Assembly (NCBI GenBank): GCA_046706745.1
Contig: JBJKPC010000010.1
Location: 27,139-91,138, forward strand
Reading direction: 5' to 3'
Source of the DNA: Candidatus Kryptoniota bacterium
GTDB lineage: Bacteria > Bacteroidota > Ignavibacteria > Kryptoniales > JAKASW01
Length of the DNA: 64,000 nucleotides
Below the pieces are notes generated by a model, which was given only the letters and a program-made list of their open reading frames with translations, ran no database searches and was not told where the DNA came from. Below, one piece after another: positions 34,216-53,888 of this stretch. Each line of letters begins with the position of its first letter. The first letter of the stretch is position 1. Position numbers and translations under genes: made by a program.

Positions 34216-34345
34216 ACGTCCTTGATGGGAACGCCATGGCAAAGGAACCGATTAGCCATGGGCGTCTTCCGTTCGTTTAACTAACTTACACTAAACCGTT
34301 TGTCCCAATTTCTCCCGAGAGCTTATCCATTTAATAACAACCTGT

Positions 34346-34376
34346 CAAGTACTTGCCGAAGAGGTTGCTCAGCAAG
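34346..34376. promoter_or_regulatory. palindromes CAAGTACTTG and TTGCTcAGCAA in the divergent control region
   Basis: Perfect 10-bp palindrome at 34346-34355. A 5+1+5 palindrome at 34365-34375. Together they give three CAAGT/ACTTG half-sites. Function unknown. Confidence 0.25.
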
Positions 34377-34684
34377 TTATTCCTGCAGATGAATAATGTC
34401 AATTGCACTAATCGGCTGATAAAGCATTAACGAGAAAATGTGTACAATGGAAACATCCCGATAACGGCAGAACAGGCAAATCGCTGTGGGCCGATCTAGA
34501 ATAACATAAATGGAATCGCCAACTCCCCTCTGCAGAAAACGTACGGCCGTTTATATCCCTGCAAGATCAGAGTAAATCCAACTTTTAGGATACTTCTTTA
34601 TAGAGGGCCGATACCAGTCTTTCTCCGTAAAGGAGCGGATCGCATCAGGGAACTTCGCCCCCCTGTGCACAGGTTCTACAATAA

Positions 34685-35581
34685 ATGGACTTTCGACAGA
34701 ACCTTAGGGCGACACTACTCTACTTCGACCTCTTCGATTATCCATTGACCGAAGAAGAGCTTTTTCAATTCATGCCCGAGAAAACTTCCTTGTCCGAATT
34801 CAGGCCTCTCGCACGCCGGAGCGGGTTCCGGTCGTCGAACGGCTATATCCAGATCCGAGAAAGAGCAGATTTGACGCCTATACGTCAAGAGAGGCAGAGA
34901 CGCGCCGAAAGGATGCTACTCGCTTCAAAATTCGTAGGGGAGTTGGTTAAGATATGCCCGTTCGTTAGGGGCGTTTTCCTGTCGGGCTCCCTGAGCAAAG
35001 GAGTGAACGATGGCGGTGCCGACGTGGATCTTTTCATTGTTTCCTCAGAGCACCGGCTCTGGATCAGCCGATCGATCCTGACCCTATTCAAGAAGTCTTT
35101 TCTTCTGAACAGTAAGAAATTCCTTTGTCCGAATTATTTCGTCACAGAGAGACACCTGGAAATACCCGATAGAAACATATTCACTGCAACCGAGCTAATC
35201 ACGCTTAGGCCGTTATATAACACCGAAATGCTGAGCACACTTCTAGAGGCTAACAGGAGATGGATAGAGAACTTCTATCCTAACTTCATGCTGGAGTACG
35301 GGAAGAGTCCGGCACATCGATCTCTCCTTCAGCGGGTTCTCGAGCTTCCGATGAACGACGGCTATACGGAAAGGCTTGATGCCAGACTTATGGAATTCTA
35401 CCGGAAGAGCTGGAAACACCGATATCCCGGATTTACAGACGAGGAACGTGATTTCTTATTTAGGACAACACCATACGCCTCAAAAGTGCATCCGAACGAT
35501 TACCAGAGTAAAATCCTCCTGGAATATGAAAGGCGATTGAGCATCGAGGGGTTAACGAGATTGACACGATTAAATGGCTGA
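34685..35581 (+). CDS. nucleotidyltransferase-fold protein (Pol-beta-like GS...DxD motif)
   Basis: 298 aa. GSLSKGVNDGGADVDLFIV matches the minimal nucleotidyltransferase signature. First gene of the eight-gene operon. Confidence 0.6.
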   Translation: MDFRQNLRATLLYFDLFDYPLTEEELFQFMPEKTSLSEFRPLARRSGFRSSNGYIQIRERADLTPIRQERQRRAERMLLASKFVGELVKICPFVRGVFLSGSLSKGVNDGGADVDLFIVSSEHRLWISRSILTLFKKSFLLNSKKFLCPNYFVTERHLEIPDRNIFTATELITLRPLYNTEMLSTLLEANRRWIENFYPNFMLEYGKSPAHRSLLQRVLELPMNDGYTERLDARLMEFYRKSWKHRYPGFTDEERDFLFRTTPYASKVHPNDYQSKILLEYERRLSIEGLTRLTRLNG

Positions 35582-37055
35582 TATACTCCTGACACATTCT
35601 TATTTCATGAAGTTTGACATCAAGCAGTGGCGTACTATGCAACCGTATGCCCCTCTTGGTACTCTTTACGCCGCGGCCGTCCTTCGAGGAGCAGGGATGA
35701 GTGTCGCATTTTTCGATACGATGTTCGCATCCTCGGAGAATGAGCTTACTCGAGCCATCGATTTGCATCACCCCTCAGCGGTCGTGATTTATGAGGATAG
35801 TTTCAACTACCTGACCAAGATGTGCCTCGAGCGAATGCGGACCGCAGCTTTTCGAATGATCGATATCTCAAAGCGCGCCGGATGCAGGGTAGTGGTAACC
35901 GGATCAGATGCTTCAGACAATGTCATGCAATACCTTGAAAAAGGGGCCGACTATCTCATCTTCGGTGAGGGCGAAAACACACTGCAGGAGCTTTGCTCCC
36001 GACTGATTTCAGGAAAGGAGACAGATCTCGGGTCCGTCGAAGGTATTTCCTTCTTGTCTCACGGAACCGCTGTCAGGACAGCCCCCAGACAACCAGTGAG
36101 AGATCTTGATTCATTCCCATTTCCGGCCTGGGATCTTGTCGATCTCGATACGTACCGCCGGGCTTGGAGTCGTCACGGCTACTTTTCGATGAACATCGTC
36201 ACGACACGAGGGTGCCCCTTCGGCTGCAATTGGTGCGCGAAACCGATTTACGGAAGAGGGTATAACTCACGGTCTCCCAACAATGTAGTCGACGAAATCG
36301 AATGGCTAAAGAAGGTGTACCGTCCGGACCATCTCTGGTTTTGCGACGACATATTCGGCCTTAAACCCGGATGGATCGAAGAATTCCGCGAGGCGGTTTT
36401 GCGAAAGAATGTCAGAATAGAATACAAATGTCTTTCAAGACCCGACTTGCTTCTCAAAGAAAACAGCTTTGATGCGTTGGCGGCCTCGGGATGCCGCACT
36501 GTCTGGATAGGTGCGGAGAGCGGTGACCAGAGGATACTCGATGCCATGGAAAAGGGAACTACGGTGGAACAGATTCGGGAAGCCACCCGCAGGCTCAAGG
36601 AGAGACGCATTAAGGTCGGTTATTTCCTCCAGTTCGGATATCCGGGCGAGAAGTATGATATGATCAAGAAAACTATGGCTATGGTTCGTGACGAGAGACC
36701 TGATGAAATTGGAATTTCAGTGTCATACCCTCTCCCGGGGACAAAGTTCTATGATATTGTCAGGAGCAGGATCGGAAACAAGCATAATTGGTATGACAGC
36801 GACGATCTTGCACTGCTTTTTCCGGGAGAATTTCGGCCGGATTTCTATGTCACCCTGCATCGCATTGTACACCAGCGCCATCGGCTGCGCAGAATTCTTT
36901 CAGGTAACGAGCGGCTGACCCCGCGCACTATCGCCGCACTGGTCTACACTCTCTTGAGACTCCCGTATTCGGCCGTAATGCTCAAGTTTAAACGCAGGCA
37001 AAACCCGCGGCGTTTCAATTTGCCTGATACATTTAACTACGGACGTGGCAGATGA
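35574..37055 (+). CDS. B12-binding-domain radical SAM protein
   Basis: 493 aa. N-terminal cobalamin-binding-like Rossmann region (ILLTHSYF....PYAPLGTLYAAAVLRGAGMSVAFFD) and the CxxxCxxC cluster CPFGCNWC. Overlaps the upstream gene by 8 nt. Confidence 0.85.
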   Translation: MADILLTHSYFMKFDIKQWRTMQPYAPLGTLYAAAVLRGAGMSVAFFDTMFASSENELTRAIDLHHPSAVVIYEDSFNYLTKMCLERMRTAAFRMIDISKRAGCRVVVTGSDASDNVMQYLEKGADYLIFGEGENTLQELCSRLISGKETDLGSVEGISFLSHGTAVRTAPRQPVRDLDSFPFPAWDLVDLDTYRRAWSRHGYFSMNIVTTRGCPFGCNWCAKPIYGRGYNSRSPNNVVDEIEWLKKVYRPDHLWFCDDIFGLKPGWIEEFREAVLRKNVRIEYKCLSRPDLLLKENSFDALAASGCRTVWIGAESGDQRILDAMEKGTTVEQIREATRRLKERRIKVGYFLQFGYPGEKYDMIKKTMAMVRDERPDEIGISVSYPLPGTKFYDIVRSRIGNKHNWYDSDDLALLFPGEFRPDFYVTLHRIVHQRHRLRRILSGNERLTPRTIAALVYTLLRLPYSAVMLKFKRRQNPRRFNLPDTFNYGRGR

Positions 37056-37867
37056 AGGACGGCAACGCCTACGGTTTCGAGAAGGTTGAAGAGGCATTCA
37101 ACCGCCAATCGCCGTTGTTCGACGGCTATGAAGAAAGCAACCCAACTCTGATCTGGATGCGCCGCACGATTCACCGTCACGTGGAAACTCTCATACACCC
37201 CGGCGAGCGCCTTCTCGATTTGAATGCCGGTACGGGCACCGACGCCATCTACTTTGCTCAAAGGGGCCTGTCGGTCCATGCAATCGATATTTCACAGGCC
37301 ATGCTTGAAAGGCTGAAAGAGAAGGCGACACAGGAGCATGTGAGCGATCGCATTTCCGTCGAACACAAATCGTTTACGAATCTATCTTGCCTCCAAGACG
37401 GACCGTTCAATCACATTTTTTCTAACTTCGGCGGCCTCAACTGCATCAAAGACCCCTCAGCTGTGATATCGCAATTCGGCGGCATCCTTGTACCCGGGGG
37501 GACAGTCACACTTGTAGTTATGCCGCCAATGTGCCCCTGGGAGTTAGCGGTATCTCTTAGAGGAAACTTCAGAATGGCTTTCCGCAGGCTAAAGAGGGGA
37601 GGGACTCACGCAAACGTCGAAGGGATAATATTTAAGACATACTATCATTCTCCCGCACATCTTGTTGAACGTTTCGGCGCCGAATACTCGGTGGCCGGAC
37701 TCAGGGGTCTTTGCGCGGTCGTTCCGCCTCCAAATTTCAATCGACTGGCTTATCGTCATCCGAAAATATTCCGGAGACTCACTGCATTGGACGAAAGACT
37801 TTGTACGCTCCCTCCTTTTTCCTCGTGGGCAGACCATTACATACTTACAATGCGTTACAATACCTGA
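37052..37867 (+). CDS. class I SAM-dependent methyltransferase
   Basis: 271 aa. SAM motif I LLDLNAGTGTDAIYFAQRG. ATGA start/stop overlap with the radical SAM gene. Confidence 0.8.
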   Translation: MKDGNAYGFEKVEEAFNRQSPLFDGYEESNPTLIWMRRTIHRHVETLIHPGERLLDLNAGTGTDAIYFAQRGLSVHAIDISQAMLERLKEKATQEHVSDRISVEHKSFTNLSCLQDGPFNHIFSNFGGLNCIKDPSAVISQFGGILVPGGTVTLVVMPPMCPWELAVSLRGNFRMAFRRLKRGGTHANVEGIIFKTYYHSPAHLVERFGAEYSVAGLRGLCAVVPPPNFNRLAYRHPKIFRRLTALDERLCTLPPFSSWADHYILTMRYNT

Positions 37868-37873
37868 TGTGAT

Positions 37874-39619
37874 ATGAGAGTCCCGAGCTACCATACTTTG
37901 GCATCGACTCTCACCGGCAGGTCCGGGGTGACTATAGCCTTGCTCTTTGGCGGACTGTTGGCCTACCTCGGCTGTTATCGCGCTCTGACTTCACCAGTCC
38001 AAGATTTTGCAAATTACTACACCTCGTCGCGATTGGTACTCGACGGTTCATTCAAAAAAGTAAATGTCTACGACTATTACACTTTCGAGAAAACTGTCGA
38101 CAACTACTTCAGGAATACCCTTTCGTCTTTCATACCATTTCCGCCGAGTACCGCGCTGATGTTCATTCCGCTGGCATGGCTGCCCCCTGATTCTGCGCGA
38201 GCGTTATTTCTACTCATTAATGTTGCCTGCGCAGCCCTTCTTGTATGGATGCTTTATCGACTTACCCGGCTCCCTGTCCTCCTCCTGATATGCCTAGTCT
38301 TACTCAACGGCATCAGCCTTTGGAGCGATCTCCGGGAAGGTCAAGTTTACCTGCTATTGACTCTCCTGATCGTCGCTGCGCTCGTTCTTGAGAGAAAAGG
38401 GAGGAGGTTTAGCGCGGGAGCACTTTTCGGGCTGGCACTTCCGGTGAAATACCTTACAGGGTTATTCATCGCTTACTTCCTTGCCCGAAAAAGGGTCAAG
38501 CTCGTGATCGGCGCGGTCGTCGCTGCAATCGGAGTCTTCGCAGCGGGATTGGTTGCGGGCGGAACAAAAATGAACGACTATTATCTTTCCGTGATCCTGC
38601 CGCAGCATCTGGCCGGGAACATTCAGAATCCGTTCGCGGTCAATTTTCAATCTTTCAATTCGCTCTTCAACCGGATTTTCATCCCCAACCAAAGTATGAA
38701 TCCTCATCCGATTCTCGACGCTCCGATGATCGGTTACTGGCTTCGCGCCCTCGTGCCACTCATTGCACTAGCCCTAGTGCTCATCTCGTTATCCAAAACG
38801 CGCCGAGCTCCCGAACACCTGCGAACTATGTATTCCGCAGGGCTGCTCGTTATCTTCGGTTTTGTGGTCTCCCCCGCATCAGCGAATTACCACCTTACGC
38901 TACTGATTATTCCGATGGCCATACTTTTCTCAATTGCAGCGGAACCGGATCTGCCTCGCGAATTGATCCATCTCAGAAAGAGAATACCTTCCATTTTCGG
39001 ACTCTACCTTGCGATCAATCTCATTCCATACTATAAGCTGTACGCGTTTGAGTCCGATCCCGCCCTTCAGCTCGCATCATATTTCCGATTAGTTCTGATC
39101 ACGGCTCTCTTCTTGATCGCAATTCCGCCGATCGCCCTCAGAGACACCGGGTTGAAGGGGCTCGTCGGTGGCGCAATAGCGGTCAGTTTAATATTGGGCT
39201 ACGTTCGGCTTCCAAAGAGGATGGCCGGAGACGATGCCAAGTGGGCGGGTGTTCCGGGGCTCATAATACCGAGACTGTACAGCGACGGTCAGGCTATCTC
39301 CTATCTGAGCGATACGCCTCGGGGATATGTTGAGAAGAGGCTCAGGCTCCGTACTGATTCTATCGAGAGGAAGAATGCCGGCGTCAAAAGACATTTCGAA
39401 CTCTCGGCCTTCGATTCCACAGCGGATGACTCGACACAACTTTTCGTGCGAAACGATCTCACCGGCGCCACATCACAACTGACACGGCACGGATTACACA
39501 ATATGGATCCAGTTTGGAATGCCGATCATACCAGGCTTTACTTCTTGTCCGATAGGGGAAGAGGTATTGATTGCACGAGCATTTTCTATTTTCCGGCCGA
39601 GCGAGTCCACATGCCATGA
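37874..39619 (+). CDS. polytopic GT-C-type glycosyltransferase (DUF2029/GT87-like) with C-terminal PD40/TolB-like repeat
   Basis: 581 aa with at least 10 TM helices. First-loop motif QDFANYYTSSRLVLDG as in DUF2029-type mannosyltransferases. The soluble C-terminal tail has a PD40-like repeat (SQLTRHGLHNMDPVWNADHTRLYFLSDRGRG). Confidence 0.7.
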   Translation: MRVPSYHTLASTLTGRSGVTIALLFGGLLAYLGCYRALTSPVQDFANYYTSSRLVLDGSFKKVNVYDYYTFEKTVDNYFRNTLSSFIPFPPSTALMFIPLAWLPPDSARALFLLINVACAALLVWMLYRLTRLPVLLLICLVLLNGISLWSDLREGQVYLLLTLLIVAALVLERKGRRFSAGALFGLALPVKYLTGLFIAYFLARKRVKLVIGAVVAAIGVFAAGLVAGGTKMNDYYLSVILPQHLAGNIQNPFAVNFQSFNSLFNRIFIPNQSMNPHPILDAPMIGYWLRALVPLIALALVLISLSKTRRAPEHLRTMYSAGLLVIFGFVVSPASANYHLTLLIIPMAILFSIAAEPDLPRELIHLRKRIPSIFGLYLAINLIPYYKLYAFESDPALQLASYFRLVLITALFLIAIPPIALRDTGLKGLVGGAIAVSLILGYVRLPKRMAGDDAKWAGVPGLIIPRLYSDGQAISYLSDTPRGYVEKRLRLRTDSIERKNAGVKRHFELSAFDSTADDSTQLFVRNDLTGATSQLTRHGLHNMDPVWNADHTRLYFLSDRGRGIDCTSIFYFPAERVHMP

Positions 39620-40773
39620 AGATCGGGTTCATGAAGTTCGTCGATGAGTATTTCGGCACGGCGATTCTCGCGTTGTTGTCATGTGTTTTTGGCGTGGACC
39701 CGCGTCCTCGGAGTCCGAATCCTTCGAAGATCCTCGTAGTAAAATTTTGGGGAATTGGAAGCGTGACTCTATCCACTTCGTTGCTGGTGCGGCTGAGGCA
39801 AAGATATCCCGAAGTCAAGATCCACTACCTTACTCTCGAGAGTAACCGCGAGCTCTGCTCTCTGATTCCCGAAATAAACTCGATCCATTCGGTGACTTTA
39901 TCGTCCGCACGCGCATTTGTAACGTCGTTTACCCGCGAACTCCTGGAAATTCGCAGACAACATTTCGACACGATGTTTGATCTGGAATTCTATTCCAATG
40001 TGTCGGCACTCGCCGGATTTCTTTCTGGAGCACCGAACAGGATCGGATTCGCTAATCCGCGCAAGGCGCGTCCGGCAAGAAAGAGGATGTATACCCAAAC
40101 CATTCCATTCCGGGACAATGAACATGTAGCGAGAAATTTCGTCCGACTGCTTGAACCGGTGGGTCCGCTCGTTCTTTCTTCTCTAATTCGAAGTCCGGAG
40201 CCCCACGTGCTGGTCCACCAATTCCCGGTTGTAATGAATATCAATTCCAGTCCACTCGCTTATGAACGGTTGTGGAGCCGCAACGGATTCAATGAACTCG
40301 CCCGTCACCTCATCAACAGATTCGGAGCACACATATTCCTGACGGGTACTCCGGGCGAAATGGAATATGTCAGCGGCCTCGAAGCAGCACTCGACGATCA
40401 CGATAATGTCACTAACCTGGCGGGGAAGACGACGATCCGCGGGCTGGTAGACCTGATCTCTTCATCGAGCCTAGTGGTGACGAACGATTCAGGGCCACTG
40501 CACCTCGCGTCCGCGTTGAACGTTCCCACAATATCGTTCTTCGGGCCCGAAACGCCCCGGCGTTATAATAGTCTTGCCGATCACCGTCTCACTTTTTATG
40601 CGGGACTCTGGTGCAGTCCCTGTATGACTGTAAGTAATCTCAAGACTGTCAACTGCATCAACGGCGGACAATGCATGAAGCAAATACGTTTCCCGGACAT
40701 CGAGCGCTCAGTCGACCGCTTCGTGTATTCAATCCGTCAGCTGTCGCCGACTGAACAAAGGAAAGTCCTTTAG
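39616..40773 (+). CDS. glycosyltransferase family 9 (heptosyltransferase-like)
   Basis: GT9 C-terminal signature LVVTNDSGPLHLASALNVPTISFFGP. ATGA overlap with the upstream gene at 39616-39619. Confidence 0.82.
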   Translation: MKIGFMKFVDEYFGTAILALLSCVFGVDPRPRSPNPSKILVVKFWGIGSVTLSTSLLVRLRQRYPEVKIHYLTLESNRELCSLIPEINSIHSVTLSSARAFVTSFTRELLEIRRQHFDTMFDLEFYSNVSALAGFLSGAPNRIGFANPRKARPARKRMYTQTIPFRDNEHVARNFVRLLEPVGPLVLSSLIRSPEPHVLVHQFPVVMNINSSPLAYERLWSRNGFNELARHLINRFGAHIFLTGTPGEMEYVSGLEAALDDHDNVTNLAGKTTIRGLVDLISSSSLVVTNDSGPLHLASALNVPTISFFGPETPRRYNSLADHRLTFYAGLWCSPCMTVSNLKTVNCINGGQCMKQIRFPDIERSVDRFVYSIRQLSPTEQRKVL

Positions 40774-40783
40774 GAGGAACCAC

Positions 40784-42262
40784 ATGATTATCCTCTTCAA
40801 TCCTAGGAGTTGCCACTCTAACTACCGACTTCCGCTGTCGTTGTTGTCGCTGGGTTCCACCCTGGAAGGGAAGTTCGACTATGAGATCATCGAGGGGAAC
40901 TTTCTCTCCGATCCCATGCCCGCGCTTACCAAGGCCGTCGAGGAGAAGAAGGCCGATGTCTTGGGTTTCAGCGTAATGCCGGGACCGCAGCTTCAGCAAT
41001 CGATCCCTTTGTCGAGAGCTATCAGACAGCGCTTCCCGGCGCTGAGGATTGTATGGGGCGGTTATTTCCCTTCTAGCCATACGGATGTCTGCGTGAAGTC
41101 TCCTACAGTTGATTTTGTAATGCGCGGACAATGCGAGAAGGCATTCCCCATGTTGATCCAAGCTATCCTGGACCATGGAAGTTTGGATGACGTCCCCAAT
41201 CTATCTTACGAAATCGGAGGCCGGGTGCACCATAACCCTGATGCGGAGCTGATCCACCCGGACGAATTGCCGCAGTTACCGTATCACAAGATCGACGTCG
41301 AGAAGTACGTCAGCAGGACTTACCTTGGAACGCGTACTCTTTCGTATCATTCTTCGTACGGCTGTCCGTTTCAGTGCGGCTTCTGCGCGGTTGTACCGAT
41401 CTATAACGCGAGATGGCTTGGCAAGAGTGCTCCTCGGATGGCAGAAGACATTGAGAAATTAATCGTCGACCATCGTGCGAATGCGATCGAGTTCCATGAC
41501 AACAACTTGTTTACTTCTGAAAGAAGACTCGTCGAATTCTCGGAGTATATTCTCAAACGCGGGCTCAAATTTTCCTGGTGGGGGGAAGGACGACCCGACA
41601 CGTTGCTGAACTTTTCCGAGAATTCATTTTCAATAATGAAACGGGCCGGACTGAAGATGGTCTTCATGGGCGCCGAATCCGGTGATGACGCAACGCTTGC
41701 TTCAATGAACAAGGGAGGAACTCAAACGGGCGAGACAGTCATCCGGGTAGTGGAAAAATTCAAACGGCACGGAATAGTCCCGGAATGTTCCTTTGTTTTC
41801 GGGATCCCGTGCGGCGATGTGGACGCCTCCATAGAAAAGGAGATAGGATTTATCAGGGATCTTAAAAACAGAAATGAACAGACCGAGATAATTATTTACA
41901 TGTACTCCCCCATCGCCCTTGAAGGCTCGACGGTTTATTCAAACGCCGAAGAACGCGGATTCAAGTTCCCTCAAACTTTGCAGGATTGGGCAAAACCGGA
42001 ATGGGCGGAATTCGATCTGAGACGAAACCCTCTGACTCCCTGGATCAAGCGAAGGCACGTTAGGCGCGTAAAGGGCTTTGAGAAAGTGCTAAACGCGGTG
42101 TACCCGACGAATTCCGACATAAAACTGAAATCATACCAACGAACGGTCCTGAAATTAGCAGGTACCTGGCGATACCTCGCCAGGGCTTATTCCTTCCCGT
42201 TTGAAATCAGGCTGCTGCAGCATTACTTTCGATATCGGCAGCCGGAGATCGAGGGGTTCTGA
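40784..42262 (+). CDS. B12-binding-domain radical SAM protein (second copy)
   Basis: 492 aa. N-terminal B12-binding-like region (IILFNPRS....LPLSLLSLGSTLEG) and CxxxCxxC as CPFQCGFC. Confidence 0.85.
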   Translation: MIILFNPRSCHSNYRLPLSLLSLGSTLEGKFDYEIIEGNFLSDPMPALTKAVEEKKADVLGFSVMPGPQLQQSIPLSRAIRQRFPALRIVWGGYFPSSHTDVCVKSPTVDFVMRGQCEKAFPMLIQAILDHGSLDDVPNLSYEIGGRVHHNPDAELIHPDELPQLPYHKIDVEKYVSRTYLGTRTLSYHSSYGCPFQCGFCAVVPIYNARWLGKSAPRMAEDIEKLIVDHRANAIEFHDNNLFTSERRLVEFSEYILKRGLKFSWWGEGRPDTLLNFSENSFSIMKRAGLKMVFMGAESGDDATLASMNKGGTQTGETVIRVVEKFKRHGIVPECSFVFGIPCGDVDASIEKEIGFIRDLKNRNEQTEIIIYMYSPIALEGSTVYSNAEERGFKFPQTLQDWAKPEWAEFDLRRNPLTPWIKRRHVRRVKGFEKVLNAVYPTNSDIKLKSYQRTVLKLAGTWRYLARAYSFPFEIRLLQHYFRYRQPEIEGF

Positions 42263-42291
42263 ATTTTGTTTCTGTCAAGAGCGATCCGCTC

Positions 42292-43857
42292 ATGATTTAC
42301 CTAATGCTGAGTTACGCCAGGTCCGGAGGGACATTACTGAACAGATGTCTGGGCTCATTCGACGAGGTTGTGATGCTGTCCGAGATAAATCCGATGGACA
42401 ACGGCAATCGGAGAATGGACGCACCGAGACAGTGCAGGTCATGGTACGGTATAGATGTGCACAACACAGACTTCAAAGGGATCATTTCGGAATGTAATGA
42501 CTGGTGCAACGCACATAACAAGAAGTTAATAGTCCGGGATTGGTCAACGGTAAACTTCAGGAAAATGGACAAGAACCATTTCAGTCCCCCGAACAGATTT
42601 CTCATCATCGACGAACTTAAGGAAGTGGACGACCTGAAGATATTTACCCTGGTAAGAGATCCCATAGACGTCTTCATATGTGCCGGTTCGGAAACCGTCG
42701 CACTTGAAGGCTATGCGCGCTTTGTAAAGGAGGCGATGAACATAAAGGGTAATAAGATCATCAAGTACGAAGATCTCTGCCGTTCCCCCAACGAGGTGAT
42801 GAAAGACCTCTGCGACTACATTGGCATCCCATACTCCGAAGAGTGGCGACTCTTTTACCGGAATACCAAAGCGACCGGCGACATCGACTTGAAAGCAGAG
42901 CCGCGGAATAGGAAAAAGGAATTGATTACACTGCCGCGTCGCAAGAGAATCAGCGCCATCTCTATACTTGAAGTCAACCAATCTGTTTACTTGAGAGAAG
43001 TCAATTCGTATCTCAATTATCTATCGAGTTATCACGATGGGGCGGAGATTGAGAAGAATTATGACAGACTTCGATCCTATCTGGGTTCGGTACGATTTCG
43101 CTTGACATCACCCGGATCCATCGCACTAAAGGGTCGGAAGTCCTTGAGAATCCTGCTCAATCATATTTACAGGCCGTATGCACTGAAGAGGATGGCGCGA
43201 CCCGACGCAGTTTCCATATATGGCTGCAATATCAATACAAGTCCGGAGGTATTTCATCCGATCCTATTTCATAGCACTAAAATTCTAGCTTCCGAAATCA
43301 CGACAGCTCAGATGAAAGGGAAGAGGGTGCTTGACATGGGAACGGGCACCGGTGCAATTGGCATCCTTGCAGCACGGCAAGGTGCCTCTGTTACAGCTGC
43401 GGACATAAACCCTTCCGCGGTGGAGCTTTCCAGAAACAATGCGCAAAATAACTCAGTTGAAATGAACGTCGTACAATCCGATCTCTATTCCTCATTGGAC
43501 GGCAAAAAGTACGACGCTATATTCTTCAACATCCCGTTCTATCCTAAAATCGCCCATGATATGTCCGAGGAGGCGTTCAACGCCGGTGAATCCTTCTCGA
43601 CGGTAGTACGATTCGCACAACAATCTGTTCGTCATTTAGCCGATGGAGGGACCGTTATGATAGTGTTCTCGGAAGTCTCCGGCTACCGCGCCATCACGGA
43701 TATATTTTATGAGGCGGGCTTCGTGGTTCGAAGATCGAAAGTGCGCCAAGCGTTCTTCGAGAAGTTTTTCATTGTTACGTTTTCCATGAATACTTTGTCG
43801 GGTAAGGTAACGACTCGCAAGAACACCGAAGGACAAATCGGGAGGTTTGCTGGGTAA
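42292..43857 (+). CDS. fusion protein: N-terminal sulfotransferase-like domain plus C-terminal small-domain (NPPY-like) SAM methyltransferase
   Basis: N-terminus has a PAPS 5'-phosphate-loop-like SYARSGGTLL and a 3'-phosphate motif-like TLVRDPIDVFIC. C-terminus has VLDMGTGTGAIGILAARQGA, DINP and FFNIPFY (NPPY-like), as in PrmC/RsmC-type methyltransferases. Confidence 0.65.
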   Translation: MIYLMLSYARSGGTLLNRCLGSFDEVVMLSEINPMDNGNRRMDAPRQCRSWYGIDVHNTDFKGIISECNDWCNAHNKKLIVRDWSTVNFRKMDKNHFSPPNRFLIIDELKEVDDLKIFTLVRDPIDVFICAGSETVALEGYARFVKEAMNIKGNKIIKYEDLCRSPNEVMKDLCDYIGIPYSEEWRLFYRNTKATGDIDLKAEPRNRKKELITLPRRKRISAISILEVNQSVYLREVNSYLNYLSSYHDGAEIEKNYDRLRSYLGSVRFRLTSPGSIALKGRKSLRILLNHIYRPYALKRMARPDAVSIYGCNINTSPEVFHPILFHSTKILASEITTAQMKGKRVLDMGTGTGAIGILAARQGASVTAADINPSAVELSRNNAQNNSVEMNVVQSDLYSSLDGKKYDAIFFNIPFYPKIAHDMSEEAFNAGESFSTVVRFAQQSVRHLADGGTVMIVFSEVSGYRAITDIFYEAGFVVRRSKVRQAFFEKFFIVTFSMNTLSGKVTTRKNTEGQIGRFAG

Positions 43858-43862
43858 GACAA

Positions 43863-44669
43863 ATGGCAGGCCGGCTACTTCCAACAGCGGACAACCTTTC
43901 CCATGACTATTACGATTCCATAGCATCGATTTACGATGCCATGCTAAGCGACAATCCGCGCACACATTGGATTCGTGAGGCGTTTCATGATTTGGTACAT
44001 CAATCCGTACCTGCCGGTAGTACGCTTCTGGACTTCGGTTGCGGTACCGGGACAGATGCAAAGTGGTACGCGGCACATGGCTACAATATTGTCGCCTATG
44101 ACCAATCGAGCGGAATGATTCAACAGCTCGAAGAAAAATGCGCTGTAGAGATCAGGGACGGTCTGATTTCCACCGTGTTAGGCGACAAGTCAACTCTTCT
44201 TCGTGAGATGCAGAAGATCCGTTCTGTCCAGGGGATCGTCTCAAATTTTGCCGTAGTAAATGAAGTATTCGACCTTGCGGAGCTTTTCGATTGCTTCAGC
44301 AAGTGCCTCGATCCGGGAGGACGGCTTGTAGTGAGCGCCCTTAATCCGATTATGTGGACGGTACCGGAAGCTGTTTCAATCCGGAGGCGGATAATCGGGC
44401 ACGTCTCAGGAGGAAGGCTCGCGTACCATGTGGTTAAGCCAGGAACCGTCTTGCATTCGACCCAACATCTGGAAGATGCCTCCGGTCTCCGTTTTATCAA
44501 GGTGGCACAAGCCGGGGTAGGGATGTTTGTCAATGAAAGCGCCGGGAGACTCGATTGGACCAAGCCGTCGGGCCTTGGTGAGAGGATTGAACGCCGGGTT
44601 TGGAAAACTCGTCCGTTTTCCCAACTGGGAAGGTTCATCTTCACGGTTTGGAAGAAGAAGGTCTCGTAA
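43863..44669 (+). CDS. class I SAM-dependent methyltransferase
   Basis: 268 aa. Motif I LLDFGCGTGTDAKWYAAHG resembles the methyltransferase at 37052. Last gene of the operon, convergent with the RND genes. Confidence 0.8.
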   Translation: MAGRLLPTADNLSHDYYDSIASIYDAMLSDNPRTHWIREAFHDLVHQSVPAGSTLLDFGCGTGTDAKWYAAHGYNIVAYDQSSGMIQQLEEKCAVEIRDGLISTVLGDKSTLLREMQKIRSVQGIVSNFAVVNEVFDLAELFDCFSKCLDPGGRLVVSALNPIMWTVPEAVSIRRRIIGHVSGGRLAYHVVKPGTVLHSTQHLEDASGLRFIKVAQAGVGMFVNESAGRLDWTKPSGLGERIERRVWKTRPFSQLGRFIFTVWKKKVS

Positions 44670-44820: not shown

Positions 44821-47800
44821 CTATCTCAAATCTTCGTCCTGTTTGAGCTCTCTCTTGAACTTCTCTTCAAAAATTGTGTACAGCGTCGGGACGAAGATAA
44901 GGGTCAAAAATGTCGACACTGTCAGGCCACCAATGACCGCGATTGCAAGCGGCGCCTGTGATCTGTCCCCGCCGATTCCAATGGCCATCGGAATTAGGCC
45001 GATTACCGTGGCGATGGAAGTCATGAGGATCGGCCGCAGCCTTGTTCGGCCGCCGAGGATCACCGATTCATGGAGTTCCATCCCTCTCTTTCTTAATCGA
45101 TTTATGTAGTCAACCAACAGAATACCGTTCGACACAACTATTCCGATCATCACAATCACACCTTCAAAAGATGTAACGGATAGGTCCGTGTTCGTCAGGA
45201 ACAGCGCCCACACCACTCCTACGAGTCCCAGAGGAACGGAAAACATTATGATAAACGGATCGACGAGCGACTGGAACTGAGACGCCATAACCATATACAC
45301 CATTACAACTGCGAGAAGAAGAGCGACAAGAAGAGAGCTGAAGGTACTTTTCTGTTGTTGGATGTTACCGCTCTGTTTTATCTGGAAACCGCTTGGTACG
45401 TGCAGAACGTCCAATCTCCTTTGGATACTCGCTGCAACACTACCGAGATCCCTGCCGGTGACATTCGCAGTAACATCGATAATCCTCTGCTGATACTTTC
45501 GATCTATTTCAACGGGCGTTTTCGTCATCACCACCTTCGCGATGTTGCCCAACTGTATCAGTTGTCCGCTTGAACTCGGTACCGTCAGCTTTCCGAGATC
45601 ACTGATATTGTCCCGGTCACTCTTTTCGAGGCGGACAAGTATGTTATACTCGTTTCCCGTCCGTGGAGAAGTAAATTGTGATGCGACTGTTCCGTCGATG
45701 GCTGTCGTGACGGTGTTTGCCACGTCGGCAACGTTGACCCCTAAGGCTCCTGCTTTCTTACGGTTGACTATAACGTTCAGCTCGGGCATATCGGCATCCA
45801 TGCTGATCTGCGTGTCTGTTGCACCTGGAGTCGAACGGACTATGTTGTCAACCTCATGCGCAAGGTGCATTCCCGTTGTTAGGTTGTATCCCATGATTTC
45901 GACATCGATTGGAGCATTAGAGCCGAAGTTCAGCAGAAAATGAAGAAAGCCGCCGGGAGCGAGATATATTTTCGCGCCGGGCAACGCCATCAACTTGGGC
46001 CTTAGGGAATTCATTATTTGATCTTCCGAACGACTTCTCTTGCTTGCAGAAACTAGCTGAACATTGATATTTCCTGCATATTCACCGGGATTCCGGCTGA
46101 AAAGGTTTCCGCTTTTTTCTGACGGGACACCGATATCTGAGATGATCGTTTTTGTTTCCGGAACATTTTTCCTGATCAGCGCCTCGACTTCCTTCACGTA
46201 TGCCACAGTCTTTCCGATCCTCGTGCCGACAGGCATTTTCACAGAGACAGTGAACTGGCTTTCATCGGTCGAGGGGAAGAACTCCGATCCCACAAACTTG
46301 AAGAGTGCCAAAGACAATATGGAAAATCCTAGCACGCTGAATATAACTGCTTTCCGGTGATTCAAAGATGTGGAAATGAATTTCTGATAACTGATATCGA
46401 TACTGTCGAAGAAATTCTTCGAATAGAGCTTCAATTTATCCATCTGTGTAGCGGACCGCAGGTCAACTTCCTTCTCCGGTTGTATCACCTTGAATGAGAG
46501 GAGGGAAGTGACGCTTTGCGACACGAAAAATGAGGCAAAGAGAGCGACGCTGATGGTAAGCACAAGGGGCATAAACAGCAGTTTCGCTATTCCGGTCAAG
46601 AAAATAACGGGAAGGAATACGATTACCGTGGAAAGAGTCGATATGAATATAGGGCCGGCCACTTCAAGTGCGGCGTTCAATGTCGCTTGTATCCGGCTCA
46701 AGCCGCTGGTATCCATCAGGTTGTAATGCCTTGTTATGTTTTCGAGCTCCACGATGGAATCATCCACCATCCTGCCTACACCGAGCGCTAATCCTCCCAG
46801 CGTCATTATGTTAAGCGAGTTGCCGCTGAACCTGAAGAAAATGAAGGTCACAAGTATCGACAAAGGAATAGCGACGAAGATTATTATTGCGCTCTTGAAG
46901 TCTCTCAAGAACAGGAGTATTACTATCGTGGCAAGGAGGGCACCAATGATTGCCTCCTGTTCCAAACCGCTCACCGACTGCTCTATGTACGTGGCCTGGT
47001 TGAAAGCCAGCGAGGTCTTCACCGATTTCGGAACCCCCTGAAGCTTGGGAAGCTCCTTTAGAACTTCATCGACCACCTGCACGGTGTTTGCGTTGGGAGA
47101 TTTTTGAACCCTCAACACAACTCCGTTTCTGCCGTTCACTCTGAGAATTTCGCTCTGCTCCTGGAAAGAATCCTCCACTTTGCCGATGTCGCCAATTGTA
47201 ATCGGATCGCCGTTCACGTCCTTCACAACGATATTTTCCATCGGCTCGACCAAATTGAACTGTGTCCTGGTAGCAAGAGTGTAGTCGAAGACGCCCGTTT
47301 TCAAATCGCCCGACGGAAGAATCAGGTTTGAATTCGCAACTGCACTGGTGACGTCCTCAATCGGGATATTGAGCGCCTGCAGTTTGTTCCGGTTGACGAG
47401 AACGTGGATTTCCCTGATCTTTCCACCGGAAACTGCAGCCTGAGCCACCCCGGGAAGATGTTCGAGTTGCGGTTCAATAACATTGTAAGCGAGGTTATAT
47501 AGAGCCCGACCGCCCAGGTTGCTGCTAAGGACAACTGTACAGACCGGAACATTCGAAATATCGAATTGCAGTGCAATTGGCTGAGAAACGCCGGGGGGTA
47601 ATAGCTCTAGTTCTCTGTTTATTTTCTGAATAATGTCAACCAGACCCACGTCGGTATTCGTCCCCCAATTAAAATAGACGAAGATTTGGGACGCCCCTTC
47701 ACGGGTCCTGGATTCTACGTAACTAATATCGTTTGTGCTGCTTACCGCCCGCTCGAGGGGGACCGTGACAGACTGTTCCATGCTTTCAGGAGCAGCTCCG

Positions 47801-47955
47801 TTGTAGAAAGTGATTACGGATATTACCGGAATCTGTATATTCGGGAGCATATCGATCGGGAGCTGAAGAAAAGACACGAGCCCCAATACAAAGATTGCGA
47901 TAGACCCCATCAAGGTTGAGATAGGATACTTGAGCGCGAGTCGAGTCAACCACAT
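44821..47955 (-). CDS. RND efflux transporter permease (AcrB/HAE1-like), distal paralog
   Basis: 1044 aa with 12-TM RND topology and two large periplasmic loops. Colinear with the gene at 48183-51311. Confidence 0.9.
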   Translation of the reverse strand: MWLTRLALKYPISTLMGSIAIFVLGLVSFLQLPIDMLPNIQIPVISVITFYNGAAPESMEQSVTVPLERAVSSTNDISYVESRTREGASQIFVYFNWGTNTDVGLVDIIQKINRELELLPPGVSQPIALQFDISNVPVCTVVLSSNLGGRALYNLAYNVIEPQLEHLPGVAQAAVSGGKIREIHVLVNRNKLQALNIPIEDVTSAVANSNLILPSGDLKTGVFDYTLATRTQFNLVEPMENIVVKDVNGDPITIGDIGKVEDSFQEQSEILRVNGRNGVVLRVQKSPNANTVQVVDEVLKELPKLQGVPKSVKTSLAFNQATYIEQSVSGLEQEAIIGALLATIVILLFLRDFKSAIIIFVAIPLSILVTFIFFRFSGNSLNIMTLGGLALGVGRMVDDSIVELENITRHYNLMDTSGLSRIQATLNAALEVAGPIFISTLSTVIVFLPVIFLTGIAKLLFMPLVLTISVALFASFFVSQSVTSLLSFKVIQPEKEVDLRSATQMDKLKLYSKNFFDSIDISYQKFISTSLNHRKAVIFSVLGFSILSLALFKFVGSEFFPSTDESQFTVSVKMPVGTRIGKTVAYVKEVEALIRKNVPETKTIISDIGVPSEKSGNLFSRNPGEYAGNINVQLVSASKRSRSEDQIMNSLRPKLMALPGAKIYLAPGGFLHFLLNFGSNAPIDVEIMGYNLTTGMHLAHEVDNIVRSTPGATDTQISMDADMPELNVIVNRKKAGALGVNVADVANTVTTAIDGTVASQFTSPRTGNEYNILVRLEKSDRDNISDLGKLTVPSSSGQLIQLGNIAKVVMTKTPVEIDRKYQQRIIDVTANVTGRDLGSVAASIQRRLDVLHVPSGFQIKQSGNIQQQKSTFSSLLVALLLAVVMVYMVMASQFQSLVDPFIIMFSVPLGLVGVVWALFLTNTDLSVTSFEGVIVMIGIVVSNGILLVDYINRLRKRGMELHESVILGGRTRLRPILMTSIATVIGLIPMAIGIGGDRSQAPLAIAVIGGLTVSTFLTLIFVPTLYTIFEEKFKRELKQDEDLR

Positions 47956-48182
47956 GAGATCACCTCGACCTCTTCGACCACCCGTAACCCTGACTCGATT
48001 GTCAAACCGACTGCGGCTTCACTTATTTGATAGTTCATCGTTATCTCTTTTCTTTCTTGCGGCACGGGGAAGTCGCCGAAAATCCGTGCAACAAGTTACA
48101 TCAAGTTATATCCGCAAATCTATCTCGTCCTAAAATGACTCCTTCGTAAAACTGAAAGATGGATCACACATGAAGCTTCTCA

Positions 48183-51311: not shown

Positions 51312-51314
51312 AGA

Positions 51315-53878: not shown

Positions 53879-53888
53879 AATTTTTGTA

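Follow-up and report, generated by a model that had tools for sequence, protein, structure and literature searches.

A modular eight-gene operon with two B12-binding radical SAM enzymes in a Kryptoniota bacterium, a candidate system for tailoring an envelope glycan

Gene block and upstream region

The window, i.e., the whole stretch of 64,000 nucleotides which was analysed here, contains eight genes (g1–g8) on one strand, which an earlier note had described as a single tight block and for which it had proposed domains (Table 1). This description was confirmed: overlaps and gaps were re-measured, terminator-like and sigma-70-like sites within the block were not more frequent than in shuffled sequence, and GC3 was even over all eight genes (0.55–0.61). 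For g5 (385 aa) the mechanically assigned TTG start at 39571 is unnecessary, since the ATG at 39616 overlaps g4.

The upstream intergenic region matched no Rfam family, and thus contains no cobalamin riboswitch; no sigma-70-like site was reported in it, and no sigma-54 promoter of the -24/-12 type was found upstream of g1 with up to 2 mismatches. The divergent CHASE2/sigma-54 activator is present as the earlier note had stated, but it is an insertion specific to this window. Genes for a flippase, Wzx/Wzy, a polymerase, lipid A, PAPS or nucleotide-sugars were not found among the surveyed ORFs of the window, in agreement with the earlier note, which had stated that the cluster lacks nucleotide-sugar synthesis, Wzx/Wzy and lipid A genes. 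The sole ABC set in the window is syntenic in relatives which possess just the first three genes of the block.

Table 1. Positions of genes, domains and neighbouring features in the window.
Feature	Position	Strand	Remarks
Operon g1-g8	34685-44669	+	8 ORFs, overlapping by 8 nt or ATGA, or 5-29 nt apart
Upstream intergenic region	34243..34684	+	presumed operon promoter region, 442 nt, no ORF >=80 aa
g1	34685..35581	+	first gene of block
g2	35574..37055	+	8-nt overlap with g1
g3	37052..37867	+	ATGA overlap with g2
g4	37874..39619	+	6-nt gap after g3
g5	39616..40773	+	ATGA overlap with g4
g6	40784..42262	+	10-nt gap after g5
g7	42292..43857	+	29-nt gap after g6
g7, N-terminal domain	42292..43131	+	PAPS-type sulfotransferase, ~residues 1-280 (Sulfotransfer_3, motifs, fold)
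g7, C-terminal domain	43132..43857	+	HemK2/MTS-type (NPPY-class) methyltransferase, ~residues 281-521 (profiles, motif)
g8	43863..44669	+	5-nt gap after g7
CHASE2/sigma-54 activator	31576-34242	-	divergent neighbour, window-specific insertion
ABC set	53748-58086		

The three-gene core

The product of g1 (298 aa) is a nucleotidyltransferase of the pol-beta fold with a winged-helix-like N-terminal region and a helical C-terminal domain. The NTP_transf_2 profile scored 24.3 bits (cut-off 21), the catalytic G-S...D-x-D motif is intact, and the stretch G101-S-L-S-K-G...D113-V-D115 was invariant across 42 relatives. When the AF2 model (pLDDT 92.6) was searched with Foldseek, the NTase core alone was matched (best E 0.017), the matches being MNT antitoxins and aminoglycoside or lincosamide nucleotidyltransferases (ANT(4'), AadA, LinB); the predicted fold resembles that of MNT and of these enzymes, which modify hydroxyls of small molecules. 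The family is large, with 1950 clusters at 50% identity (E <= 1e-30). Fusions of the g1 domain to Bac_transf (P0331), GT4 (P0348) and a class I methyltransferase (P0364) were found, although part of these proteins are metagenomic gene calls, for which mis-joining is possible.

Related loci numbered 80, of which 75 were scored for gene order and presence. In 44 of the latter, g1 lies directly 5' of g2 on the same strand. The g2 product (493 aa) is a B12-binding radical SAM enzyme, here called A-type, with PF02310 and PF04055 and the motif CPFGCNWC at residue 214; its relatives in other phyla showed 50–63% identity. The top NCBIfam matches were BchE (147 bits, cut-off 481), the ladderane radical-SAM family (131, cut-off 360) and HpnJ (130, cut-off 578). 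Sequence matches in the PDB included AprD4 and OxsB, and the best one was 9ccb (61 bits), which is MgmA, an MCR glutamine C-methyltransferase (PMC11796369). A methyltransferase gene comes after g2 in most loci; in the window it is g3, encoding a class I SAM methyltransferase (271 aa; Methyltransf_25/31/11, GTGTDA at residue 60), with just 28–32% identity to the enzyme at the core position of minimal three-gene relatives.

Glycosyltransferases

The g4 product is a polytopic GT-C glycosyltransferase with at least 10 hydrophobic segments. Its GT-C assignment by the earlier note held up (GT87, 106 bits); the proposed PD40 identity of the soluble C-terminal tail (~residues 450–581) is weaker, with faint PD40/TolB matches and a PD40 score of 16.4 bits, below its cut-off of 20.9. 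The g5 product belongs to GT9 (Glyco_transf_9, 88 bits); the equivalogs for heptosyltransferases I, II and III were all under cut-off. Orthologues of g4 occur with 65% identity in the closest relatives, L005 and L090, from which GT9 is missing, and with 24–34% identity in distant loci, next to GT9. As an accessory pair, GT87 and GT9 recur beside radical SAM genes in nine distant loci (L008, L011, L012, L013, L015, L016, L020, L045, L064).

The second module

A second, B-type B12-binding radical SAM enzyme (492 aa; PF02310, PF04055, CPFQCGFC at residue 194) is encoded by g6, for which BchE (112 bits) and HpnJ (94 bits) were the top NCBIfam matches, under the family cut-offs. Its orthologues (41–49% identity, about 30 of the 80 loci, 28 of the 75 scored) form a separate subfamily.

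The N-terminal domain of g7 scored 26.5 bits with Sulfotransfer_3, just below the Pfam cut-off of 27, and contains both PAPS-binding motifs (RSGGT at residue 10, RDPID at residue 122). Its AlphaFold model (pLDDT 90.9) gave 59 Foldseek matches to the PDB with E <= 0.001, and all 50 listed were sulfotransferases (best: CurM ST, 6.9e-8), by which the sulfotransferase fold was confirmed at the level of the model. The other domain calls of the earlier note were likewise upheld by profile or fold comparisons. All 59 sulfotransferase relatives are stand-alone proteins of 201–319 aa. Three of their neighbourhoods were examined: those of P0243 and P0244 (37–40% identity) are O-antigen/capsule-type polysaccharide loci, one with an APS kinase and Wzm/Wzt, and the third is not a polysaccharide locus.

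The C-terminal domain matched MTS (77 bits), TIGR00537 (100.8 bits, cut-off 87) and PRK14968 (130 bits), and has the motif N-I-P-F at residue 413. From residue 280 onwards g7 is 48% identical to a stand-alone methyltransferase of 226–230 aa which in both L005 and L090 comes after the B-type enzyme; the order of B-type radical SAM and methyltransferase was found in 9 loci, and this methyltransferase type is the usual partner of the B-type enzyme. The B-type enzyme and the NPPY-class methyltransferase are a second conserved module. The last gene, g8, encodes another class I methyltransferase (268 aa; Methyltransf_23/11/25, GTGTDA at residue 61). No specific orthologue of it was found in the 80 loci, where matches merely shadow g3, and it is absent from L005 and L090.

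The suggestion that a tailoring module had been duplicated was not borne out: g2 and g6 are 28% identical and fall into separate subfamilies, the methyltransferases paired with them are of the Methyltransf_25-type class I and the NPPY/HemK type, respectively, and g8 is a paralogue of g3 with 27% identity over the full length. The two modules are an old paralogue pair and not the result of a recent duplication.

Conservation and accretion

A core of pol-beta nucleotidyltransferase, A-type B12-radical SAM enzyme and class I methyltransferase is widespread, with representatives in Bacteroidota, Ignavibacteriota, Kryptoniota, Chloroflexota, Acidobacteriota and Armatimonadota; g1 was present in 56 and a g3-type methyltransferase in 47 of the 75 scored loci. 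At the same syntenic site, L006 and L091 contain three genes (g1, g2 and the methyltransferase), L005 and L090 six, and the window eight. The fusion of a carbohydrate-type PAPS sulfotransferase to the NPPY methyltransferase and the extra methyltransferase g8 are changes seen in this window alone. The block is a lineage-specific build-up by accretion around the three-gene core. The neighbourhood comparison showed that the genes are co-conserved and not together by chance, but, as the relatives with three or six genes show, they are not a fixed eight-gene unit.

The recurrent neighbours in related loci were GT4, GT2, GT9, GT87, a Wzx-type flippase, an ABC exporter and a polyprenyl-phosphate sugar-1-phosphate transferase. 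At least one glycosyltransferase family which recurred in our own clustering was present in 45 of 80 loci (a raw count within these loci), and in 39 of these the glycosyltransferase and radical SAM genes form a single uninterrupted block. By gene content, the core recurs inside loci for surface-sugar assembly. A SPASM radical SAM enzyme was recurrent in 22 loci. Some loci also share genes for an amidohydrolase and a nucleoside-phosphorylase-like protein.

Putative function

The earlier note could name no pathway for these genes, and none was found in the curated families, solved structures or literature searched: NCBIfam equivalogs scored far under their cut-offs and similarities in the PDB were generic. 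Its interpretation as a whole, tailoring of an envelope glycolipid or glycan, was partly supported. The glycan-assembly genes in related loci and the g1 fusions to a polyprenyl-phosphate sugar transferase and GT4 strengthen the envelope-glycan reading independently, and we consider it somewhat more probable than not that the operon, modular and accreted around its core, builds or tailors a sugar unit for an envelope glycoconjugate whose carrier during assembly is polyprenyl phosphate or a lipid. We infer its chemistry (radical C-H chemistry, O/N-methylation, sulfation) as well as its product.

On the cytoplasmic side, g1 would place a nucleotide on a hydroxyl or phosphate of a sugar, either to activate it or to serve as a handle for recognition; aminoglycoside nucleotidyltransferases carry out chemically the same kind of transfer, and Fom3 and OxsB require a nucleotide handle on their substrates. 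The sugar could then undergo radical C-H chemistry by g2, i.e., C-methylation or a BchE/HpnJ-like rearrangement, and O-methylation by g3 and g8. A second radical step by g6 may follow, with N-methylation of an amino or amide nitrogen by the C-terminal domain of g7 and transfer of sulfate from PAPS by its N-terminal domain. GT9 would transfer a nucleotide-sugar at the inner membrane face and, after flipping, GT87 would add a sugar borne by polyprenyl phosphate at the outer face. Genes for export, polymerisation and the supply of precursors would lie in other parts of the genome.

Several points count against this glycan reading. Nucleotide-sugars are not usually made by pol-beta nucleotidyltransferases, and no flippase, polymerase, PAPS or nucleotide-sugar genes came up among the surveyed ORFs of the window. 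In L003, L006 and L091 the minimal core has no adjacent glycosyltransferase, and hence its substrate could be a common non-glycan metabolite. C-methylation, as proposed in the earlier note, remains a candidate; it is not the sole one, because the best profiles of g2 and g6 (BchE, HpnJ, ladderane family) belong to cyclase or ring-contraction types which act on hydrophobic substrates. Alternatively, the radical SAM enzymes might methylate, cyclise or cross-link a hydrophobic lipid of the membrane (an isoprenoid, a hopanoid-like compound or a long-chain alkyl), with the glycosyltransferases and the sulfotransferase making just its polar head group. These profile similarities of g2 and g6, the isolated core, weak similarities to HpnH (SPASM radical SAM, 48 bits) and HpnG (PNP_UDP_1, 40 bits) in some loci, and the structural closeness of the sulfotransferase domain, among the matches listed, to the sulfotransferases of CurM and olefin synthase, whose substrates are acyl chains, are in line with this. 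We regard it as rather unlikely, in view of BchE, ladderane and HpnJ scores 3- to 5-fold under cut-offs, recurrent neighbour families without squalene/hopene cyclase, fatty-acid, polyprenyl or ether-lipid genes, g1 fusions to glycan-assembly and not to lipid enzymes, and the polysaccharide loci of two of three sulfotransferase relatives.

A diffusible glycosidic product, resembling aminoglycosides, cyclitols or nucleosides, with an ANT-like g1 and GenK-, Fom3- or OxsB-like radical SAM enzymes, is a little less likely still. To our knowledge, B12-radical SAM enzymes acting on sugars or nucleotides come so far from antibiotic pathways alone (GenK, GenD1, Fom3, OxsB, AprD4), and the fold of g1, the PDB matches of g2 to AprD4 and OxsB, and the amidohydrolase and nucleoside-phosphorylase-like genes would fit. 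Yet aminocyclitol and sugar-aminotransferase core genes are missing from the operon, as are a dedicated exporter and a resistance gene; g2 identities of 50–63% over six phyla are atypical of secondary metabolism; and the polytopic GT-C (such enzymes use polyprenyl-phosphate sugars at the outer membrane face), the Wzx flippase and the polyprenyl-phosphate sugar transferase, which is also fused to g1, point to assembly on a carrier lipid. Modification of a peptide or protein (a proteusin-like RiPP or a cellular protein) seems improbable: small intergenic ORFs (25–110 aa) formed no family common to more than two loci, no small ORF lies next to g1 in the three-gene relatives L006 and L091, protease, leader-recognition and peptide-export genes were not recurrent, and the neighbourhoods consist mostly of glycan genes. 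Residues are C-methylated by PoyB/PoyC, Mmp10 and MgmA, the best PDB match of g2; Gln/Asn side chains are N-methylated by HemK and PoyE, and the C-terminal domain of g7 passes the HemK2/MTQ2 cut-off; MntA/MNT antitoxins, the best Foldseek matches of g1, AMPylate proteins; and SPASM enzymes recur, so that radical C-methylation, N-methylation of Gln/Asn and AMPylation by g1 would be conceivable. A chance juxtaposition of eight unrelated enzymes is very improbable. In its favour, the closest relatives lack GT9, g8 and the sulfotransferase domain, and the core stands alone in some genomes; this reading is largely refuted by the co-conservation across loci, with 7 of 8 components together in L012, where g2 is just 57% identical, and the GT9 and GT87 pair beside radical SAM genes, besides the translational coupling predicted throughout the block and the fusion of the sulfotransferase to a conserved cluster member.

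Organization of the gene cluster

The eight genes g1 to g8 are carried on the same strand, and the dense packing described in the earlier note was recovered for all of them, with junctions that either overlap or are 5–29 nt apart (see the table). For g5, the mechanical ORF start is a TTG at 39571; the true start is likely an ATG (39616) that overlaps with the stop codon of g4. Terminator-like and sigma-70-like sites were not more frequent within g1–g8 than expected from shuffled sequences, and GC3 was uniform over the cluster (0.55–0.61); together with the tight junctions, this makes it very likely that the genes form a single predicted transcript. A composition scan for horizontal transfer gave no signal, and neither a cobalamin riboswitch nor any other RNA was detected by an Rfam scan of the cluster.

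Coordinates (window positions) of the cluster genes and of other features discussed in the text
Feature	Position	Strand	Remarks
Sugar housekeeping genes	116-23763		
tRNA gene	24582-24656	-	
tRNA gene	24709-24780	-	
80-aa ORF	30475-30717	-	window-specific insertion
fn3-domain protein	30784-31176	-	window-specific insertion
-24/-12-like match	31253-31238	-	
CHASE2/sigma-54 activator	31576-34242	-	window-specific insertion
g1	34685-35581	+	ORF call
g2	35574-37055	+	ORF call; 8-nt overlap with g1
g3	37052-37867	+	ORF call; ATGA overlap with g2
g4	37874-39619	+	ORF call; 6-nt gap after g3
g5	39616-40773	+	ATG start; ATGA overlap with g4
g6	40784-42262	+	ORF call; 10-nt gap after g5
g7	42292-43857	+	ORF call; 29-nt gap after g6
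g8	43863-44669	+	ORF call; 5-nt gap after g7
RND pump genes	44821-52430	-	convergent to the operon
ABC gene set	53748-58086	+	
674-aa CCG/4Fe-4S protein	58909-60933	-	
ParA/ParB pair	61834-63614	+	

The gene for a CHASE2/sigma-54 activator is divergent from the operon, as had been stated before; together with the genes for the fn3 protein and the 80-aa ORF it is situated between an aminotransferase gene and g1, and all three are absent from the four syntenic relatives (4/4). A sigma-54 -24/-12 site was sought upstream of g1, with up to two mismatches, and none was found; window-wide matches occurred at chance level. Control of the operon by the activator is thus unsupported, and the divergent placement of its gene is probably incidental. 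Since a weak -24/-12-like match, TGGCATAGCCGTTGAA, precedes the start of the fn3 gene by about 60 nt, the activator may serve the fn3 gene rather than the operon; such matches are found at chance frequency in the window.

Predicted enzymes

Radical SAM enzymes: Both g2 (PF02310, 40.5 bits; PF04055, 81.7 bits) and g6 (42.0 and 40.8 bits, respectively) scored above the Pfam gathering cut-offs. The CxxxCxxC [4Fe-4S] motif is CPFGCNWC at residue 214 of g2, with cysteines invariant in 24 relatives, and CPFQCGFC at residue 194 of g6. By domains and motif, the two proteins are predicted to be B12-binding (class B) radical SAM enzymes. No closer assignment could be made with NCBIfam models, since the scores of g2 were below the cut-offs for BchE (146.7 against 481 bits), the ladderane radical SAM protein (130.6/360), HpnJ (130.3/578), PhpK (113.5/600) and the MgmA family (104.2/360), and those of g6 were lower than those of g2 on each of these models. 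PDB sequence searches yielded only generic B12-radical SAM similarity, with AprD4 among the matches of both proteins and OxsB as a weak match of g2; entry 9ccb is MgmA (PMC11796369). The identity between g2 and g6 is 28%, and between g3 and g8 it is 27%, values which rule out a recent duplication; the "duplicated module" of the earlier note must therefore be given up, and the two pairs are old paralogues.

Nucleotidyltransferase: The match of g1 to PF01909 (NTP_transf_2) was weak but passing (24.3 bits, cut-off 21), and the motif G-[GS]-x(9-13)-D-x-[DE] is intact (G101-S102...D113-V-D115) and invariant in relatives. An AlphaFold model (pLDDT 92.6) consists of an N-terminal winged-helix-like unit, a long helix, a pol-beta nucleotidyltransferase core and a helical C-terminal domain. 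Foldseek matches were confined to the core, which is shared with MNT antitoxins and with aminoglycoside/lincosamide nucleotidyltransferases, the best value being that for MntA (probability 0.98, E 0.017), and no full-length structural analogue was found; a PDB sequence search at E <= 1 gave no match. An assignment as aminoglycoside or lincosamide nucleotidyltransferase was rejected, with TM-scores of 0.21–0.28 on the query and low rmsd for no more than about 130 aligned columns of the core. From profile, motif and modelled fold, g1 is thus assigned to the pol-beta-fold nucleotidyltransferases, and in its two-domain shape it resembles small-molecule hydroxyl nucleotidyltransferases more than it does nucleotide-sugar pyrophosphorylases. 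The family is large, with 1950 clusters (50% identity) at E <= 1e-30 in a profile search of 1.84 billion representatives; in a few longer proteins among the matches, the g1 domain is apparently joined to other domains, namely to Bac_transf (P0331), GT4 (P0348) and a class I methyltransferase (P0364) in metagenomic proteins.

Sulfotransferase-methyltransferase fusion: Since the N-terminal half of g7 scored 0.5 bit short of the Pfam cut-off (Sulfotransfer_3, 26.5 against 27 bits; Sulfotransfer_1, 18.5 against 22), its fold and motifs were tested separately. Its 59 relatives are all stand-alone proteins (201–319 aa), many with precomputed matches to PF13469 or PF00685. A model built on their alignment (AlphaFold, pLDDT 90.9) gave 59 Foldseek matches in the PDB at E <= 0.001, and all 50 listed were sulfotransferases, the top-ranked being the CurM and olefin-synthase sulfotransferase domains and TPST2. 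The PAPS motifs 5'-PSB (RSGGT, residue 10) and 3'-PB (RDPID...S, residue 122) are both present, with R10, G12, T14 and R122 invariant. Fold and motifs thus bear out the sulfotransferase proposed earlier, and the domain is very probably of the PAPS type. Two of its relatives (P0243 and P0244, 37–40% identical) are encoded in polysaccharide loci with many GT2, GT4 and GT11 genes and an epimerase gene, that of P0244 additionally with Wzm/Wzt and APS kinase; the locus of the closer relative P0242, the third neighbourhood examined, is not of the polysaccharide type. The C-terminal domain is of the MTS/HemK2 type (TIGR00537, HemK2/MTQ2, 100.8 bits, cut-off 87), and this generic match was the only NCBIfam equivalog cut-off reached by any of g1–g8. 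Its (N/D)PP(Y/F) motif has the variant form N-I-P-F (residue 413); a stand-alone orthologue in a related locus (L083) has NPPY. On these grounds the domain is assigned to the HemK2/MTQ2-type (NPPY) methyltransferase class.

Other methyltransferases and glycosyltransferases: g3 and g8 are class I methyltransferases with the GTGTDA motif (Pfam/NCBIfam). g4 matched GT87 (PF09594) with 106.4 bits (cut-off 25); it has at least ten hydrophobic segments, ends in a soluble tail of roughly 130 aa and is predicted to belong to the GT-C-fold class which depends on polyprenyl-phosphate sugars. A mycobacterial PimE-type mannosyltransferase would not fit (PRK13375, 38.8 bits, cut-off 413). g5 matched Glyco_transf_9 (PF01075, 88.4 bits, cut-off 22) and fell short of the models TIGR02195 (109.4/134.6), TIGR02201 (95.1/170.2) and TIGR02193 (68.6/185.3) for the LPS heptosyltransferases I, II and III (RfaC, RfaF and RfaQ). 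Most of the original domain calls for g1–g8 were thus upheld by Pfam, NCBIfam or fold tests; the exception is the PD40 tail of g4, for which there was only a faint match.

Distribution and growth of the cluster

The g2 family is a large one and shows strong conservation, with identities of 50–63% for members from Bacteroidota, Ignavibacteriota, Chloroflexota, Acidobacteriota and other groups. In a protein search, the best 120 matches listed were all at least 54% identical, and carriers among the Kryptoniota were found in this way. When a single genome of each GTDB species was scanned for a pattern, at least 596 stretches were confirmed, the closest genome among these having a g2 with only 63% identity. 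The best 80 loci, which were analysed, came from Bacteroidota, Ignavibacteriota, Chloroflexota, Acidobacteriota, Armatimonadota and Balneolaceae, with Mucilaginibacter, Pinibacter and Ohtaekwangia (Bacteroidota) and Melioribacter (Ignavibacteriota) as cultured carriers; these include M. flavidus (L061), P. soli (L073), O. kribbensis (L030) and Melioribacter roseus (L034).

Components were counted by tblastn and by clustering of all ORFs in these 80 loci, 75 of which were scored. g1 was present in 56 of the 75, in 44 immediately before g2 and in the same orientation, and a g3-type methyltransferase in 47. The g6-like (B-type) radical SAM protein, found in 28 loci, is a distinct subfamily, with 41–49% identity to g6 compared to a paralogous cross-match of about 25–28%; a stand-alone HemK-type methyltransferase gene followed it in nine of the 28. 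GT9 and GT87 occurred together in nine loci of Bacteroidota and Ignavibacteriota. A second copy of the g2-like (A-type) subfamily was detected in 23 loci (34–42% identity to g2), and a SPASM/twitch radical SAM protein of about 348 aa in 22; these genes come right after the g2 orthologue in L008, L010, L014, L024, L030, L035 and others. A few related loci contain a third, C-type B12-radical SAM protein. In related clusters, the number of radical SAM genes can thus reach four or five; the second A-type, SPASM/twitch and C-type genes are absent from the window.

The components are therefore co-conserved, but the eight genes are not a fixed unit, as is evident from the four relatives which share the chromosomal site. 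There, as in the window, the upstream order is MarR, YceI, AnmK, AP_endonuc_2 protein and aminotransferase, and the cluster is followed by AcrB, membrane-fusion protein, ECF sigma factor and the GldG-like ABC set. Three genes make up the cluster in loci L006 and L091 (g2 63–64% identical), where g1 and g2 are accompanied by one class I methyltransferase gene; L005 and L090 (g2 77–78%) have six genes, namely g1, g2, g3, GT87, the B-type radical SAM gene and a stand-alone methyltransferase of 226–230 aa which is homologous to g7 from residue 280. Compared to the latter, the window has GT9 inserted between GT87 and g6, a sulfotransferase domain in frame ahead of the B-type partner methyltransferase, and g8 added. 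This series of three, six and eight genes at one site provides a clean example of operon growth by module insertion and gene fusion.

Recurrent neighbours in the 80 best loci are GT4 of several families, GT2, and extra copies of GT9 and GT87; further, a Wzx-type flippase (Chloroflexota loci), an ABC exporter and a polyprenyl-phosphate sugar-1-phosphate transferase; and also a metallophosphoesterase, an amidohydrolase, a PNP_UDP_1 protein and more class I methyltransferases. At least one recurrent glycosyltransferase family was present in 45 of the 80, contiguous with the radical SAM genes in 39. Genes for cytidine/dCMP deaminase and thymidine kinase adjoin the cluster downstream in L008, L010, L012 and L013 (Ignavibacteria-like), and in L006 a dCMP-deaminase-like gene (12341-12880 of that locus) follows the three-gene core; they could reflect lineage synteny or give a hint of nucleotide chemistry. 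Among the surveyed ORFs of the window, no genes for flipping, polymerisation, PAPS or nucleotide-sugar supply were found, which agrees with the lack of nucleotide-sugar and Wzx/Wzy-type genes reported before.

Proposed function and alternatives

The reading which we favour, at somewhat better than even chances, is that the cluster tailors a sugar unit of a carrier-lipid-linked envelope glycan. The sugar substrate would be nucleotidylated by g1, and g2 would carry out radical C-H chemistry on the product, either C-methylation or a BchE/HpnJ-like rearrangement; g3 and g8 would O-methylate, g6 would provide a second radical step, and g7 would sulfate with its N-terminal and N-methylate with its C-terminal domain. 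GT9 (g5) would act on the inner face and GT87 (g4) on the outer face of the membrane. C-methylation had been assumed earlier; rearrangement is kept as an alternative candidate for g2, since its best profile matches are non-methylase families, far below their cut-offs. In anaerobic bacteriochlorophyll synthesis, the class I methyltransferase BchM is followed by the B12-radical SAM cyclase BchE. The cluster has the same pairing of enzyme classes, BchE is the top NCBIfam match of g2 and g6 over nearly the full length, and weak BchM matches were obtained for g3, the C-terminal domain of g7, and g8; however, the scores were 112–147 bits against a cut-off of 481, and other tetrapyrrole genes are lacking in the window and among the recurrent neighbours. 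Cultured carriers, Mucilaginibacter for one, are not known to be phototrophs.

In the fosfomycin (Fom1/Fom3) and oxetanocin (OxsA/OxsB) systems, a B12-radical SAM enzyme acts on a nucleotide-tagged substrate; the coupling of a nucleotidyltransferase gene to a B12-radical SAM gene is the feature in common with the cluster. Fom3 methylates only the cytidylylated 2-hydroxyethylphosphonate, and the substrates of OxsB are deoxyadenosine phosphates; g1 and g2 would likewise be linked through their substrate. The fold of the Fom1 nucleotidyltransferase differs from the pol-beta fold of g1, PEP mutase and phosphonate genes are missing from the cluster, and PhpK-family scores were 76–114 bits (cut-off 600). 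With O-antigen, capsule and LPS-core loci, the cluster shares GT9, GT-C, methyltransferases and a sulfotransferase with relatives in Wzm/Wzt- or GT-rich loci, and its relatives contain Wzx, polyprenyl-phosphate sugar transferase, GT2 and GT4; yet g5 is not an RfaC/RfaF/RfaQ equivalog, and literature searches found no described envelope-glycan locus with a B12-radical SAM enzyme or a pol-beta nucleotidyltransferase.

Tailoring of a lipid would appear unlikely, but is the strongest competitor. In the hopanoid side-chain pathway, the radical SAM protein HpnH, nucleosidase HpnG, glycosyltransferase HpnI and deacetylase HpnK act together with HpnJ, a B12-radical SAM enzyme for ring contraction; HpnP and HpnR are B12-radical SAM methylases. 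The hopanoid pathway, too, combines B12-radical SAM enzymes with a glycosyltransferase and a hydrolase, there for the remodelling of a lipid's sugar head group; g2 and g6 align over their full length to the HpnJ model, and weak HpnH-like and HpnG-like genes occur in related loci. Differences are the 130 bits of g2 against the HpnJ cut-off of 578, the lack of a squalene-hopene cyclase context, and the presence of a pol-beta nucleotidyltransferase, GT87, GT9 and a sulfotransferase, none of which belongs to the hopanoid pathway. A diffusible glycoside as product is a little less probable still. Aminoglycosides are tailored by the same enzyme classes, i.e., the B12-radical SAM C-methyltransferases GenK and GenD1, AprD4, class I N/O-methyltransferases and ANT-type nucleotidyltransferases, which act on sugars, and the fold of g1 resembles ANT(4'), AadA and LinB (Foldseek E 0.017 or worse); the cluster differs in lacking aminocyclitol core genes, in its membrane GT-C and LPS-type GT9, and in spanning six phyla at high identity.

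Modification of a peptide or protein is improbable. Small intergenic ORFs of the loci compared fell into no family common to more than two loci, as expected from the earlier claim that a precursor peptide was absent; with no such gene conserved beside the modifying enzymes, a RiPP cluster was rejected. That the eight genes are merely juxtaposed by chance has a very low probability and is excluded, in our view, by the co-conservation across loci, above all by L012, which has seven of the eight window components at a g2 identity of 57%. The main weakness of the glycan model lies elsewhere: in some genomes, the three-gene core (g1, g2 and the class I methyltransferase gene) occurs by itself, so that it might act on some common molecule other than a glycan.

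The equivalog level (NCBIfam) was missed for each specific family named as nearest analogy, and the literature searched, including reviews of 2026, gave no account of the g1–g8 gene set; within these resources, the lack of a nameable pathway stated in the earlier note was thus supported. We would class the cluster as a glycan-tailoring operon of known enzyme superfamilies around an undescribed, widely distributed radical SAM core, and not as a categorically new system. A more far-reaching idea, tentative and rather unlikely as yet, is that the core installs an as yet undescribed radical-modified sugar (C-methyl-branched or ring-rearranged) into surface glycans via a nucleotidylated intermediate, with A-, B- and C-type radical SAM/methyltransferase modules as interchangeable cassettes for decoration in at least six phyla; if true, the assembly of envelope glycans would for the first time be credited with B12-radical SAM chemistry.

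To our knowledge, B12-dependent radical SAM proteins are among the least assigned of the large enzyme groups, and the sugar-acting ones are known from antibiotic pathways. The widespread g2 family, for which there is no curated name, is encoded within loci for glycan assembly. Should the glycan link be right, undescribed methylated or rearranged (and here sulfated) surface sugars would be expected in abundant soil and sediment bacteria, a question which is testable with the cultured carriers. The cluster would therefore appear to be a good target for radical SAM enzymology as well as glycobiology.

Other genes in the window

Downstream of the operon are genes for a membrane-fusion protein and, in tandem, for two RND pumps of the AcrB type (1044 and 1042 aa); at the syntenic site, one pump is present in L006 and L091 and two in L005. 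The ABC gene set encodes an ABC ATPase and a permease of the ABC-2 type, together with a GldG-like ABC_transp_aux/DUF7088 protein and one with DUF4340; since the set is syntenic in relatives with only the three-gene core, a role as exporter of the cluster is improbable. The set is followed by a gene for an HdrD/GlpC-like protein of 674 aa, in which two CCG cysteine-rich domains are combined with 4Fe-4S dicluster domains, and by a ParA/ParB pair, which points to a chromosomal region. The two tRNA genes were the only Rfam matches in the window. The sugar housekeeping genes comprise two alpha-amylase-family proteins, phosphoglucomutase, PGI, 6PGD and G6PD, an MscS channel, a LacI regulator, an SSF symporter and an aldose epimerase, and genes for arabinose utilisation (FGGY kinase, class II aldolase and AraA).
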